Position numbers and translations under genes: made by a program | Assembly (NCBI RefSeq): GCF_048403405.1 | Contig: NZ_CP183129.1 | DNA: 64,000 nucleotides | DNA from: Escherichia coli | Lineage (GTDB): Bacteria; Pseudomonadota; Gammaproteobacteria; Enterobacterales; Enterobacteriaceae | Reading direction: 5' to 3' (one strand) | Part shown: piece by piece, positions 4,058-10,358 of the stretch | Position numbering within the stretch: the first letter of the stretch is position 1 | How the letters are laid out: each line of letters begins with the position of its first letter | The notes under the pieces: generated by a model | The model's input: the letters and a program-made list of their open reading frames with translations, nothing else | What the model was told of the DNA's origin: nothing | Databases searched by the model: none

Positions 4058-4906
4058 TTAATCCTGTTGTAGCAGGACAAGATTACGAAAGCGCGCTCCC
4101 CGCAAGGACTGACGCCAGATAGTTTCTGTCCATGGCTGCCCTTTCCATTCAAACGTGAAATCAATAAGTTCATCAGGGACACCGCAAACAATATGAAGAC
4201 GGATTTCTTCTCTGCCGTGACTCTTTTCACTCATTGCGAAACTGTCATGCTCTGGATTATTTAATTCTTTCAGTGGGAATTTTTCCTCAAAGGCTTTATT
4301 AAGCCGTCCCTGATTTCCTTTTACAGCGAATAAATAATCACCGCCCTGTTTTTGTATCTTCTCTGCGATATCTTTCTGGCAACCCATCGCATCAGTTGTG
4401 ATAATTTTTCCTTTAATATCCAACATGTTAAGAAGTTCAGGGATAGCTGTGATCTCATTGGATTTCTCATCCGTCCTGATCTGTCCGATGACCAGACTGT
4501 GCATTGTTGAGAACGCACTAATGACATGAATCGCTCCCCTGCGGCGACTCTTGTCATAAGAATGCCGGAGCGTTTTTCCATCAATTGCAATAACGTCTTT
4601 ATCATCTGAAGAATGGCAGTCACGCATCCAGTTAATAAAGCACTCGTGAAATTTTGCAGGACTGATACAGGATACAACTCTGGCAATGGTATCGTGAACA
4701 GGAATACCATTTTCAAAATCACCATATTGCTTCAAAAAATCGAGATGTGTTTCCCCAAAATCCTCTATATCTTCCCAGCCTTCTGCACCAGAAATAACGG
4801 CACAAATAGTCAACAGTAGAATATCCGACAATTTATGTTCCACTTTCCAGGCTTGTCTGTAATCGGGGATAATAGAAATATGTTCCATCAATTTTTTAAG
4901 TTCCAT
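4058..4906 (-). mobile_element. ISAs1-family (H-repeat-associated) transposase, 3'-truncated
   Basis: 282-aa ORF starting [58 protein letters not shown], the conserved H-repeat/ISAs1 N-terminus. It is shorter than the ~370-aa full-length proteins and its last ~30 residues ([26 protein letters not shown]) read as non-conserved sequence past a deletion breakpoint. Confidence 0.8.
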
Positions 4907-5013
4907 TTTGTTCTCCTTAATTATGTAAAGAGTATTTGATCATGTATACGCAATAAAAAACAGCTTCAGGTAATGAGGAATATCTCAATTTTTAAACATA
5001 AAATGCGAATTAC

Positions 5014-5615
5014 TTAGTACAAAAAGTGTACTTCTGATGATCTTTCCCTGTCCTTGGCACCATCATTTTTTGACGCTTCAAAAATACTACTACAAGTGAG
5101 TTTAGAAAACTCTTTTCCAGATAATTCTCCAGGTTGTAATCCTCCGCCGCCAAAAATCCTACTCCCAGGATTTCCATACCTATTTAGAGCATATGAATAG
5201 CAATTATTTACGGCAAGATAATACGCATCTGAATTTAGTTCTCGATTGAATACTGGAGCAGGTTTATCAATTAAGCCCAGCGGATCAATAGAATAGGTTG
5301 GATGTATGGAAGCATATACATACTGATTCCACCCGCCTTCCAGCCCAATCGGTTCCTGAGTGATATACCGCCCCTGCAGCGGGTCATAATAGCGGTGGCG
5401 GTTGTAATACAGGCCGGACTCCTCATCATACTGCTGCCCCGGCAGACGGATAAGCTGCTGCAGGTGCTGCGGGTTCTCTTCAGTCAGCAGGTTGCCCCAT
5501 TCATCATATTCTGCGCACCATTCTGTTGCCCCGTCAGGGCTGATAAGCGTCAGCGGCAGGCCGCGATAGTCGCAGTGGTAGAGGTGGATTATTCGCAGTG
5601 GTAGAGGTGGATTAT
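5014..5615 (-). pseudogene. Orphan rhs C-terminal fragment (core end plus alternative C-terminal tip), no start codon
   Basis: My minus-strand translation gives an open frame [106 protein letters not shown] followed by a distinct ~85-aa tip ending ...[12 protein letters not shown] and a TAA at 5016..5014. Nucleotides ~5290..5560 are a near-copy of rhsC 6650..6930. The frame contains no Met, which is why the ORF track shows only the antisense ORF 5302..5604. Confidence 0.8.
5561..5613. repeat. Tandem direct repeat, 23-bp unit cgcagtggtagaggtggattatt x2 plus partial third copy
   Basis: Read directly: 5561..5583 and 5584..5606 are identical, followed by cgcagtg. It lies at the upstream boundary of the orphan rhs fragment and corresponds to rhsC sequence near 6908..6930. 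Confidence 0.85.
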
Positions 5616-5706
5616 TCGCAGTGATCTATATGCCAACGTCATCTTATTTTTCATCTACTCCAACGAGTAGACAAGTTTTTTATTAAACCATTTATACCTT
5701 TTACGA

Positions 5707-6210
5707 TTAAATTTTCTTATGTAATAGAGGTGAATAATCTTCCCAAAAATCCATACAAGCTTTACTTGCATAAAAGAATCCAGCGTCTGATTCATAAGAC
5801 ATAAACTGTGCAATAATAGATAGTTGTATATCTGAAAAATTAAAAACAAAATTCAAAAAATCATCGTGATCCCGATACTCAGGACATAAATATTGTTGAA
5901 TAAAATCGGATTCAAAAACCCAAAAATCATTCTTATTAAACAACGAGGCATAAATATACAGAGGGATGTAATAGCAGAATACTTTCTCAGGGAGGAATGT
6001 AATTCCTAACTCTAAAGCATAAGAGTCATCCTTTATTTTAAAATTGTTGGCTATTTCATTCCATTGTTTCTTTTGGAAAAAATTATATACAATATCCAGT
6101 TCCTCCAGCCCTGTAATATCATTTGAAATATGAGGTAATGGCTGGCATGGGAAATGAATCATAAGTTCATCATAGACTGCACTCTCGTTAGAGAAAATTA
6201 TTTTTTTCAT
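5707..6210 (-). CDS. Putative RhsC-associated immunity protein (RhsI-type)
   Basis: AT-rich ORF directly downstream of rhsC. The ATG at 6210..6208 ([20 protein letters not shown]...) overlaps the rhsC TGA (6209..6207) in an ATGA arrangement. The track start at 6228 is a TTG extension. No recognisable catalytic motifs; position is typical for an Rhs immunity gene. Confidence 0.7.
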
Positions 6211-9200
6211 TTTATTAAGCCACTGCAATCAGCTGCTGTTTTATATGCTTTATTCTCTTCTTCCATATGGGCCTTATCTCCACCACCAAAGCACTGATTA
6301 TTAATCTGCTTTCTGACCGAAGCGCACGCCAAATTTATCTCGTACCGTCTCAATATTTCTTTTCTCAGCATCTGAGGAGCGCAAGCTCTAGACTGGTTAC
6401 ATAATCTGTTTTTTTCATTTTGTAAGTCACTCAGGTTCTGGGGACTACAGTTACCACCAGGATTTACACCTGACTTATGTTCATCTGTTAATTTGTCGGC
6501 TTCTGGATTAACTTTACGGCCATATTGATCTCTGCGTTGTTGCCCACTTTGGATAACACCACCTGATGAAAATAAACCGCAACTCATCAGTGCTACAACA
6601 CTAAGAATTAACGGATTTAACCCTTGTGGGTCTATCTCTGAGATCGGATTTAACGGATACTGATAAAAATTCCATCCCCCCTTAAGCCCAATCGGATCCT
6701 GAGTGATATACCGCCCCTGCAGCGGGTCATAATAGCGGTGGCGGTTGTAATACAGGCCGGACTCCTCATCATACTGCTGACCCGGCAGGCGGATGAGCTG
6801 CTGCAGCTGATGCGGGTTCTCTTCATTCAGCAGGTTGCCCCATTCATCGTATTCTGCGTACCACGCTGTTGTCCCTTCCGTGCTGACAAGCGCCAGCGGC
6901 AGGCCGCGATGGTCGCAGTGGTACAGGTGGATTTTTCGCGCCGGCGTGTACACCGGGTCCATCTGGTTTTGCATCTGCTCCACCGTCAGGCCGCACGATG
7001 CCAGCCAGCGGCGGCTTTCCTCGCTCACCCGGTCAGTAAGGATTTCACTTTCCAGCCGGTCGAGCATCTGCACCAGCACCGGCGGGAACACCACTCTGCC
7101 ACCGTCTTCGCCGCCGGACTGCTGAAGGGCATCCGCCAGGCTGCGGCGCTGCGTTTTCGCCAGCTCACCGGTGGCGGTTTCAACTCTGATGAGTGGCGTG
7201 AAGCTCCCCGGCTGATAAACCGTCTGGATGCGGGTTCTGTCGTTCTGTATTGTGGTCAGCCGGTCGCCGTCCCAGCCGTACCAGGTCACTTCCGGTTTCC
7301 GTGACAGCGACATCCAGCCCGTCAGGTCCCGTTCACGCCGCCATACCCGTTTTGCCACCCTGCGGCCCAGCGGGTCGTAAAGATAGCGACTTTCGACCAG
7401 CGGCTCTGCATATTGTGTCCGCGTGTAGTGCACCAGCCGGTGCCGGCTGTCGTAATGATACCGGTGAGTCCGCTCATCATCCGTGCGGATAACCCCTTCC
7501 GGGATGAGGTCGGTTTTCTCTGTCAGCCTGCCGTGACGGTCATACCGGTAAAGATAGTGCGCGTCACGGGCGATACGGTTATCCGGCCACATGCTGAGGG
7601 TGCTGTCCGGGTGCAGCTCCGGGTCGGGCAGGCGGTTGCCTGCCGGGTCCGTGGCATACGGGATGCGGATATCCAGATTCGCTGCGGTGGTGTGGACGCC
7701 GGTCAGCCTGCCGGTGTCGCTGTAGCTGTAACTCCGGGTCTGGCGCGGGCTGCTGATGCGGATGAGTTCGCCGTTGTCGTTCCAGGTGTAATCGCGGTCA
7801 TACTGCAGGCTGTTCAGGTGCTGGCTCTGTAACTGCCCGGCAGAGGTGTAAGCGGTGGTGAGTTCATAACGGCCGAAGCTGCGCAGCGTTTCCCGGTGCA
7901 GGCGGTCGCGGGTGAAATCCACCAGCGGTGTGTCGCCGAGTTTCATGCCTGACAGCCAGCCGCTGCCGTAGGTCAGCCATTCCACGGCGGGCAGGCTGTC
8001 CGGTATACAGCGGTTCGCCAGTCCCTGCGCGTTGTACGCATGTCTGGTTTCATGCTGCCAGAGCAGTGCTTCCGTCTGCGGGTGATGCACCGTCTGGCGC
8101 TCACCGGTCAGGCGGCCTTTCTCATCATACCCGTAATGCACCGTCACCCGGTGGCCTTCGCTGAGATGGCTGATGCCTGTCAGCCAGCCGCGTTCGTCAT
8201 ACTGCCACTGCTCTGCAGGTTCACCCTTCACGGTGCGGTGAGTGAGGCGGTCTGCTTCGTCATAGTGCCAGTGGGTGACCAGCCCCTCATCCTCGCTGCG
8301 GATAAGTTTACCGGTCAGGTCGTGGTGATAACGCTGTGTGCGGCCGTCAAAGCCGGTTTCCTGTATCAGCCGGTCAAGTACATCGTAACGGAAGGTGGTG
8401 TGGCTGCCGTTTTCACTGGTCAGGCGGATGACCCGCCCGGCAGCATCGTATTCCATACTGCGCGTCAGACCGCCCTGCGTGGTACGAACGGGCTTTCCCC
8501 ACGCATCGTACTGTGTCCCGTTTCTGCTGCCGTCCGGGGCAATGACGGCGGTCAGGTCACCGGCGGCGTTGTATTCATACCGCGTTTCATGGCCCTGCGT
8601 GTCTTTCACCGCAATTAACTGTCCACGGCTGTCGTATGCGCGGTACTGACTCAGCCCTTCCTCGCGGTGCACCGCCGTCACCTGACCAAAACGGTCATGG
8701 TCATAACGGGTTACATAACCGGAACAGTCAGTGACGGTCAGCAACTGACCGTAACGGCTCCATGTCATGGTTTTCCGGCTGCCGGTGGCATCTTCCGTTG
8801 CGCAGGGTAAGTCACTGTGTGGATTATCATAACGGTAGCGGGTGATATCGCCGTTGTGTGCGGTTTCCTGAATCAGACGGCCGGATTCATCATATTTGCG
8901 GCGCAACTCCAGCCCGTCAGTCCCGGTGGCTGACGTTAACTGGTTGTGGTGGTTATAGTAAAATGCCGATGCCCTGCCATCCGGTGTGGTGATGCGCGTG
9001 ATGAGTCCCGTCACCACATCCGGGCTGTACTCAGTCGTCCGGCCTGCGGCATCCGTCTGTGCCTTAAGCCCGCCCACCGCGTCAAACTGACTCTGCGTGA
9101 CGCTGCCGTCCGCGTGTTCCTTTTTCACCACCCGCTTCAGCCCGCCTTCGCCCTGCGTGTGCAGCACTTCACGGCGGTCCAGACTGTCGGTGATGGTGAT

Positions 9201-10358
9201 GCGGTCTTTCTCATACTGATACGTGTAGCTTAAGCCTGCCGGGTTTAGCTGTTCTGTCACCCGCCCGTCGCTGTCGTAACGGTAACGGATATCCGGCCGG
9301 CCCGTGTGACGGTGCGCCACCATCCGGCCCCGGTATTTATCATCGTAAGTAAAGCTGCGCACCTGTGTATTGCTGCGGTCATACACCGCCGCCAGTTCGC
9401 CGCGTGGCGTCCAGCCATAGCGCACCAGCGGCGCGGCAGGTAAATTCTCCGGGTATTCCGGGTCGTGCGTCAGCCACACGGCAGACAGACGGATGCCGTT
9501 GTCCCGGCCATATTCGGTGTAACCCGGCAGGGTATCAGGAAAAACGGACGGTTCCGTCCCGCCGGAAATGGCCTGCTGCCGGGCTTCTTCTGCCCGCTGC
9601 GCCTGCGTGGTCAGTACCAGCCGGAAGTGACGCCCGGCACCATCCGTCACGCCGGTGATTTCGCCGCTGAATTCGCCGCCAGCCTCACGGTGAAACGTCT
9701 GTGTGCGCCCGAAGCGGTCCACCAGCCCGGTCAGTACCCGGTACGGCGGCAGCGGCGCGGGCAGCACCTCATCCGCCTCCGGCACCCGCTCACACCAGCC
9801 GAGTACCCACCACGGCCCCTGCGGACTGTTTGTCGCCAGATAACGATGCGGACTCAGGCGAAGCTCTTCCGGCAGCGCCTGCCAGAGTGCGGCCAGCCGG
9901 TGACCTTCATCCAGTTTCGCCACGCCGCCGCGCACCAGCCAGAGTGACTCGCTGCGGCTGTAACCGTCCTCACCGGGAAACAGGTGCTCAAAATACAGGC
10001 TTCTGCCGCCGTTATCACTGAGTGTCAGTGTGTTATCGCGCAGCTGTAAGCGGATATCCGCAGGCATTTTCCAGCCGGGGCCGAGGCTCCCCACCGGCGC
10101 GGGCGTTTTTGTCCGGTAACTGCTGTAGGTGCGGGAGAGGATGAACGGCAGCGGGCCGGGCAGGGCAAGGTCGGTTTCGCCGGGAAGGACCTTCGCACCG
10201 AGCAGCGGATTGACCGGATGGCCGGACGTCACCCCGCCGGGGCACACCGAACAGGCCACGCCGGTGGGGGCACCAATACGTACCCCGGCTGAACCCTGAA
10301 CAATGCTACCGCCATACTGCGTCATGTCGCCCTGACGCGCCGCCGGTTTTCCGCTCAT
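6207..10358 (-). CDS. rhsC: Rhs-family polymorphic toxin (YD-repeat protein) with variable C-terminal tip
   Basis: 1383-aa product; N-terminus [31 protein letters not shown] (PAAR-like), many YD repeats ([33 protein letters not shown]), and the core-ending PxxxxDPxGL region ([32 protein letters not shown]) followed by a ~140-aa divergent tip. Chromosomal context (ybfA, kdp) matches rhsC. Confidence 0.9.

Follow-up and report, generated by a model that had tools for sequence, protein, structure and literature searches.

The window examined here, a stretch of 64,000 nucleotides of Escherichia coli DNA (contig NZ_CP183129.1, RefSeq assembly GCF_048403405.1), carries an rhs gene at the rhsC position whose 3′ end and downstream open reading frame (ORF) form an exchanged module. 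The module is an AT-rich cassette of 1030 bp that encodes a 25-residue linker, a four-helix domain of about 110 residues belonging to the Pfam family Ntox16, and a soluble protein of 167 amino acids (aa) of the DUF6714 type. It is best read, with some confidence, as the variable end of a polymorphic Rhs toxin followed by its immunity gene, working by the mechanism proposed below; the words toxin and immunity are applied on the strength of family and gene order. What goes beyond a textbook Rhs tip/immunity cassette assigned to a Pfam family is the putative pairing of Ntox16 with DUF6714, judged by family assignment and gene neighborhood.

Both genes lie on the minus strand. The rhs ORF (6207-10358) specifies 1383 aa and ends in the codons GGC TTA ATA AAA TGA. 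Its stop codon (6209-6207) overlaps the ATG (6210-6208) of the next ORF, which spans 5707-6210 from that ATG and would extend to 5707-6228 from a TTG start. This overlap of a 167-aa ORF with the rhsC stop codon had been proposed in a first-pass annotation of the stretch and is confirmed as an ATGA tetranucleotide. The same 4-bp overlap occurs in eight related loci (L002, L003, L008, L009, L010, L011, L012, and L014). The features of the gene and its cassette are as follows.

6627-10358, minus strand: Rhs core, comprising the N-terminal region, DUF6531, YD/RHS repeats and the RHS core domain (Pfam matches, identity to K-12 rhsC)
6618-6632, minus strand: codons of DPQGL, the core-end (cleavage-site) motif, inside which homology to other rhsC alleles ends
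6543-6617, minus strand: hydrophobic linker resembling a transmembrane (TM) helix, tip residues 1-25, directly after DPQGL (Kyte-Doolittle hydropathy; predicted local distance difference test, pLDDT, 52-61)
6210-6539, minus strand: predicted folded toxin domain, tip residues 27-136 (AlphaFold2 pLDDT 97-99; PF15523)
6219-6458, minus strand: Pfam Ntox16 match, tip residues 54-133 (PF15523)
6312-6314, 6276-6278 and 6267-6269, minus strand: codons of the conserved tip residues R102, D114, and H117 (conservation among 138 family members)
Within the tip, minus strand: cysteines conserved family-wide, C57, C73, C79, C98, C109, and C131 (same 138 members)
6207-6210, minus strand: ATGA overlap of the rhs TGA stop and the downstream ATG (read from the sequence)
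5707-6210, minus strand: 167-aa ORF, predicted cognate immunity protein, DUF6714-like, all-alpha, no signal peptide (Pfam, AlphaFold2, homologs)
5597-5706, minus strand: distal cassette end with spacer, hairpin (5654-5671), and a 23-bp tandem repeat at the junction (no K-12 match)

Boundaries and composition of the cassette

The locus occupies the E. coli rhsC position (order kdpFAB-ybfA-rhs...ybgA-phrB-dtpD), the same chromosomal position that holds rhsC-ybfB in K-12. The Rhs core is recognized by Pfam through PF05593 RHS_repeat (3e-67, in 11 stretches), DUF6531 (1.6e-18), and PF03527 RHS (7.6e-17), and ends in the motif PxxxxDPxGL, from which alleles lose homology. In BLAST comparison, the 96.4% identity to K-12 rhsC extends over 4275 bp, breaks off at 6627 within the D-P codons of DPQGL, and resumes only at 5596, within the downstream orphan core fragment. 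The cassette is the interval between these points (5597-6626). The GC fraction is 0.618 for the core but falls to 0.405 for the tip (6207-6626) and to 0.304 for the downstream ORF. At 0.35, the 1030 bp of the cassette as a whole have a lower GC fraction than any other stretch of equal length in the 64 kb, against a background of 0.522 on average (standard deviation 0.044) for 1030-bp windows. The shift from a GC-rich rhs core to an AT-rich tip and ORF had been noticed from the letters, with a border at about 6640; both points hold, and the break at 6626/6627 is sharper than could be seen from sequence alone.

A search of both strands of 5500-6800 finds no sigma-70-like promoter, compared with 4.5 ± 2.3 in shuffled sequences and despite the AT-rich composition. 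As the cassette contains no promoter-like site, the rhs transcript probably serves for translation of the ORF as well, and the ATGA overlap would couple the two genes. The only terminator-like hairpin in the same interval (5654-5671) has its T-run on the plus strand, the wrong strand for the rhs operon.

The tip is an Ntox16 domain

The first-pass annotation did not recognize the tip as a known nuclease or deaminase family, and in that respect it was right: in Pfam scans of the tip and 60 aligned relatives, Ntox16 alone is matched and no characterized enzymatic toxin family. The tip is nevertheless not unclassified. The profile search that had been suggested for it assigns it to Pfam Ntox16 (PF15523), a predicted toxin family, with 49.6 bits (cut-off 25), an E-value of 4.8e-13, and coverage of profile positions 2-84 of 85; the peptide quoted for the tip is found in the rhs translation. 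Ntox16 was delineated through comparative genomics and described as an alpha-helical, RHS-associated domain with a conserved R and a [DNE]xxH motif, exported by type II secretion (T2SS), type VI secretion (T6SS), or Photorhabdus virulence cassettes (PVC), and listed without an immunity protein (Zhang et al., 2012, PMC3482391). An exhaustive HMMER search (E ≤ 1e-3) retrieves matches in 281 clusters at 50% identity. Almost without exception the domain sits at the very C-terminal end of its protein, with a median of 7.5 residues after it. Ten long members were scanned; nine carry it behind RHS repeats and one behind the core domain of an extracellular contractile injection system (eCIS). Pfam scans of proteins with additional C-terminal sequence or duplicated domains reveal no new fusion partners.

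Conservation among 138 aligned members is concentrated in few residues: six cysteines (each in 135-138 of the 138), an arginine (138/138), and the motif GG[DN]xxH, with the histidine and the Asp/Asn each in 137/138. Several Asn, Leu, and Gln positions are also strongly conserved. The E. coli tip retains every family-conserved residue, namely the six cysteines, R102, G112-G113-D114, and H117 (D114-K-A-H117), and the pattern agrees with the R and [DNE]xxH signature of the original description (PMC3482391). AlphaFold2, run on a 60-sequence alignment, models four helices (tip residues 38-49, 59-73, 85-109, and 115-135), with pLDDT of 97-99 over residues 27-136. A structure search with this model gives no meaningful fold match, a profile search of the PDB is empty, with no solved structure found for Ntox16, and neither the tip nor the 167-aa ORF is matched in NCBIfam or PADLOC.

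Three further candidate folds or families for Ntox16 were considered by informal comparison and set aside. A saposin-like or CHCH-type disulfide fold is not supported by the cysteine spacing; the distance of 15 residues from R to H does not give the Rx4-6H motif of HEPN RNases; and the motif of Fic/Doc proteins is different.

The Gly/Ala/Ser-rich linker (6543-6617) reaches a maximum 19-aa Kyte-Doolittle mean of 1.98, and a comparable TM-like stretch lies at most 90 aa upstream of Ntox16 in 35 of 111 diverse family proteins. The linker may be a membrane-entry or anchoring helix. The same features could indicate a different kind of toxin, one that is disulfide-stapled and acts on the membrane or in the periplasm by pore formation or envelope damage, anchored by its linker and with its cysteines oxidized by the Dsb system of the target. 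Six invariant cysteines in a helical domain of approximately 85 residues, the TM-like Gly/Ala-rich stretch before it here and in the 35 relatives, and the lack of detectable similarity to any enzyme fold all fit such a toxin. It is nonetheless an unlikely explanation, since the invariant Arg, His, and Asp/Asn and the GG turn look catalytic rather than lytic, the eCIS-borne member would be injected into the cytosol, and the DUF6714 partners that were translated or aligned have no signal peptide, lipobox, or TM helix (N-termini read by eye), which points to protection in the cytoplasm. In addition, 49 of the 138 members have a seventh, unpaired cysteine, which leans slightly against a pure disulfide scheme.

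Exactly six cysteines are found in 82 of the proteins. The seventh, where present, lies at the start of helix 3 in 45 of the 49 cases; its column in the alignment corresponds to R85 in the E. coli tip of 136 residues, or to position 60 in the 111-residue query.

The partner gene is a borderline DUF6714 member

Sequence comparison indicates that the 167-aa ORF is a real gene, and its homologs have a constant length across genera. Its AlphaFold2 model is all-alpha (pLDDT 84.7); the model has no Foldseek match, the PDB profile search is empty, and a profile search started from the immunity alignment yields no relatives beyond those of the first search. The ORF shares with proteins that pass the threshold of Pfam DUF6714 (PF20461) its length, an all-alpha prediction, and the motifs FP..., gKxW, FYxPxY, Qxxaiaxfl, and FW. 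DUF6714 has no described function, and a literature search found no mention of it.

The gene neighborhood of Ntox16 is more informative. Nine related loci were examined (L002, L003, L004, L005, L006, L008, L009, L012, and L014), and a DUF6714-type gene directly follows Ntox16 in eight of them, behind Rhs or eCIS carriers. A Pfam DUF6714 gene stands in this place in L002 (Rahnella), L004, L005 (the eCIS-core carrier), L006, L008, and L009. L012 and L014 (Salmonella and Enterobacter mori) were reached from the other side, via immunity homologs, and have an Rhs-Ntox16 gene directly upstream; the L012 partner has a weak DUF6714 match, and the L014 partner is a 64%-identical homolog of the ORF in the window with no DUF6714 match on record. 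The exception, L003, has a downstream ORF with weak similarity to the DUF6714 profile. This recurrence beside Ntox16 makes DUF6714 its likely cognate immunity family, a pairing absent from the 2012 table.

The two genes do not diverge at the same rate. Identity to the E. coli pair is 75% for the partner and 90% for the toxin in Citrobacter freundii, and 35% and 78%, respectively, in Enterobacter cloacae. The faster divergence of the partner, together with a joint swap of the C-terminal end of the toxin, fits a specificity-determining binder that would contact helix 4.

In the E. cloacae variant (L011, 2488-3347), the last 20 or so residues of the tip are replaced (…HMSEESEAYGVSAVCSRYASTK) and the partner is only 35% identical. 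The fifth conserved cysteine of this tip is changed to Arg, and the copy may be a decaying orphan.

A small protein encoded behind a secreted effector could instead have an accessory function, for example as a chaperone or adaptor that helps to load or stabilize the tip, with immunity encoded elsewhere or not needed. The ORF resembles no characterized immunity family, and the catalog of Zhang et al. (PMC3482391) gives none for Ntox16, both of which would suit such a role. The position of the ORF speaks the other way: it directly follows the toxin gene, in most cases overlapping it by 4 bp, whether the carrier is an Rhs protein, an orphan Rhs fragment, or an eCIS core, and orphan toxin fragments keep it. 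Linkage independent of the carrier is a signature of immunity and not of a carrier-specific chaperone. The ORF also diverges faster than the toxin, and the exchange of the C-terminal helix coincides with the 35%-identical partner. An accessory role is therefore very improbable, and a cytoplasmic partner combined with carrier-independent linkage argues against this role and against a membrane or periplasmic toxin alike.

Spread, exchange, and selection

Of 5426 complete E. coli genomes, 243 contain the segment comprising tip and ORF (5707-6640), in every case undivided and at least 99.8% identical, whereas a query that includes flanking core matches 4217 of the 5426. Beyond these genomes, homologous tips (63-90% identical) and small ORFs (53-82%) are found in Shigella, Citrobacter, Enterobacter, Lelliottia, Rahnella, and Salmonella, and the two adjoin at every locus examined. 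Such pairs stand behind Rhs genes in Citrobacter, Enterobacter, Lelliottia, Rahnella, and Salmonella; the full-length Rhs gene that carries the pair at its end in Enterobacter mori occupies a different chromosomal site. A tblastn search of plasmids with the tip returns a single distant Acetobacter match and nothing else, which gives no indication of a plasmid route.

Between E. coli and C. freundii, the toxin has a ratio of nonsynonymous to synonymous substitution rates of 0.044 and the immunity gene one of 0.105; both cassette genes are under purifying selection. The earlier proposal of a horizontally exchanged toxin/immunity cassette thus gains support from the DPxGL boundary, the contrast between 243 and 4217 genomes, the pairs in other genera, and purifying selection.

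C. freundii (L010, 1-2762) carries two different Ntox16-partner modules in tandem: the end of the main rhs gene with a 161-aa ORF, followed by an orphan rhs C-terminal fragment with a 174-aa ORF. Identity of this second tip and ORF to their E. coli counterparts is only 38% and 33%, a divergence that suggests allele-specific immunity within the family.

Proposed mechanism and its weak points

By analogy with other Rhs proteins, the tip would be held inside the YD-repeat shell and freed by self-cleavage at DPxGL, and a type VI secretion spike would probably carry it into neighboring bacteria. The hydrophobic linker may then help the Ntox16 domain to reach or cross the inner membrane. A soluble immunity protein and an eCIS-borne relative suggest that the domain acts in the cytoplasm, where it would work as an enzyme. 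Its candidate active site combines the near-invariant Arg of helix 3 with GG[D/N]xxH, the glycine-rich turn from which helix 4 starts. Since an Arg facing a Gly-rich turn with Asp/Asn and His suits a phosphate, a nuclease or nucleotide-directed activity is the best guess from the conservation pattern, with a chance that we would put at roughly one in three. The six conserved cysteines would stabilize the small bundle, by forming disulfides or by binding metal. The DUF6714 protein is predicted to bind the toxin 1:1 in the cytoplasm and thereby to protect sister cells, and the ATGA overlap and the lack of a separate promoter would tie its synthesis to rhs translation.

Several points weigh against reading the module as a working toxin-immunity pair with this mechanism. 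Delivery is the weakest step at the rhsC locus: the N-terminal match to Pfam PAAR_motif is weak (16.5 bits, cut-off 27), the annotation of the 14-kb neighborhood shows no adjacent vgrG, and it is unclear which VgrG, if any, carries proteins of the RhsA-D type (PMC7216683). The ORF itself stays below the DUF6714 threshold (24.4 bits, cut-off 27; E 3.3e-5; profile positions 65-159 of 161); the Rahnella counterpart scores 32.3 bits and passes, as do several relatives that are 59-65% identical. Six invariant cysteines are unusual in a protein that acts in the cytoplasm, and an oxidizing compartment would fit them better. A literature search found no measured activity for any Ntox16 protein. Finally, with 243 E. 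coli copies at least 99.8% identical, intactness of the genes says little about selection within E. coli.

Some of these points also raise the prospect that the module is an intact-looking but silent relic, in a lineage where rhsC-type genes are not expressed or not secreted and the cassette persists by clonal descent. Consistent with this, the locus is not flanked by vgrG or T6SS genes, the match to PAAR is weak, the cassette has no promoter-like sites, the near-identical E. coli copies could stem from one recent lineage, the orphan module next to it has visibly decayed and is broken up by an ISAs1 element, and the literature is uncertain on delivery (PMC7216683). Set against this, both ORFs are full length and keep all family-invariant residues, purifying selection between genera is strong on both genes, and Rhs genes of full length in several genera retain this pair at their ends. 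A silent relic therefore seems improbable, somewhat more so than a membrane or periplasmic toxin, and a functional toxin-immunity pair remains the preferred reading.

At the N-terminus of the Rhs protein (10230-10358, minus strand) the literal PAAR letters are present, in a region too short for a full PAAR domain.

Relation to known systems and significance

The gene resembles the Rhs toxins of Enterobacterales (E. coli RhsA-D and those of Dickeya and Enterobacter) in its DUF6531, RHS repeats, and core ending in PxxxxDPxGL, and likewise in its variable AT-rich tip, the small gene after it, and the orphan tip fragments downstream. In contrast to this shared architecture, neither the tip nor the partner gene is related to its counterpart in K-12 rhsC/ybfB, with no homology after 6627. 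Unlike the characterized Rhs nuclease tips, Ntox16 is a predicted toxin. The tip shares with Pfam Ntox16 (PMC3482391) the alpha-helical fold, the R and [DNE]xxH residues, the C-terminal place, and the RHS or PVC/eCIS carriers. It differs from the 2012 description in two ways: the table lists no immunity protein, whereas a DUF6714-type gene follows in 8/9 loci, and the Enterobacterales clade adds a conserved pre-domain helix and a hydrophobic linker.

A second comparison is offered by Ntox15, which is alike as a small helical polymorphic-toxin domain with a short His/Asp motif; this is an analogy and not membership. Ntox15 proteins are DNases, as exemplified by the Tde effectors of Agrobacterium. 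The family is described as mostly alpha-helical, with an HxxD motif and delivery by T6SS or PVC (PMC3482391). No sequence relationship to the tip is detectable, and Ntox16 differs in having [DN]xxH rather than HxxD, six invariant cysteines, and a different immunity family.

More tentatively, Ntox16 may represent a new toxic activity: a four-helix bundle of about 85 residues stapled by cysteines or a metal, with an active site of an Arg and a GG[D/N]xxH turn and no relation to any solved enzyme fold, with its own membrane-entry helix, and with DUF6714 as a dedicated immunity family. We consider this possible but somewhat doubtful. If it is true, the rhsC cassette would offer easy genetic access to a new toxin mechanism and a new toxin-immunity interface. 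A new activity would add a toxin fold, and a nuclease would be one more routine entry. Antibacterial activities are stored in abundance in Rhs tips, and many cataloged Ntox families are still without a known target. The E. coli member is genetically tractable and present in about 4.5% of complete E. coli genomes, and R102, D114, H117, and the six cysteines are specific candidate residues for mutation. The DUF6714 pairing is the likely answer to the gap in the 2012 catalog and gives that family a putative role.

Neighboring rhs remnants and insertion element

Beyond the cassette, in the direction of transcription, lies an rhs remnant.

5013-5604, minus strand: orphan rhs core fragment with a second, truncated tip, outside the module (Pfam RHS 3.4e-12; pseudogene in the annotation of the NCBI Prokaryotic Genome Annotation Pipeline, PGAP)

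Its core piece (5326-5596) is 91-93% identical to K-12 core ends. The second tip has no Pfam match, and no partner gene is left beside it. From about 5050 the fragment is cut by homology to ISAs1/H-repeat elements. An ISAs1-family transposase ORF (H-repeat, ybfD-like; 4061-4906, minus strand), which is a pseudogene in an identical RefSeq record, replaces the ybfO/ybfC/ybfQ/ybfL stretch found in K-12 at the rhsC locus. In a record that is 100% identical (strain 4621; also MS 69-1), PGAP gives the order pxpB, ybgI, dtpD, phrB, ybgA, ISAs1/ybfD pseudogene, rhs fragment pseudogene, hypothetical protein, "RHS element core protein," ybfA, and kdpFA.

At the junction of cassette and fragment, a perfect 23-bp tandem repeat (5570-5623, 2.3 copies, plus-strand unit TCGCAGTGGTAGAGGTGGATTAT) duplicates the piece of rhs core that encodes IHLYHCD, at the exact 5′ edge of the orphan rhs fragment. 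The repeat looks like the scar of a recombination or slippage event that joined the cassette to the next fragment.

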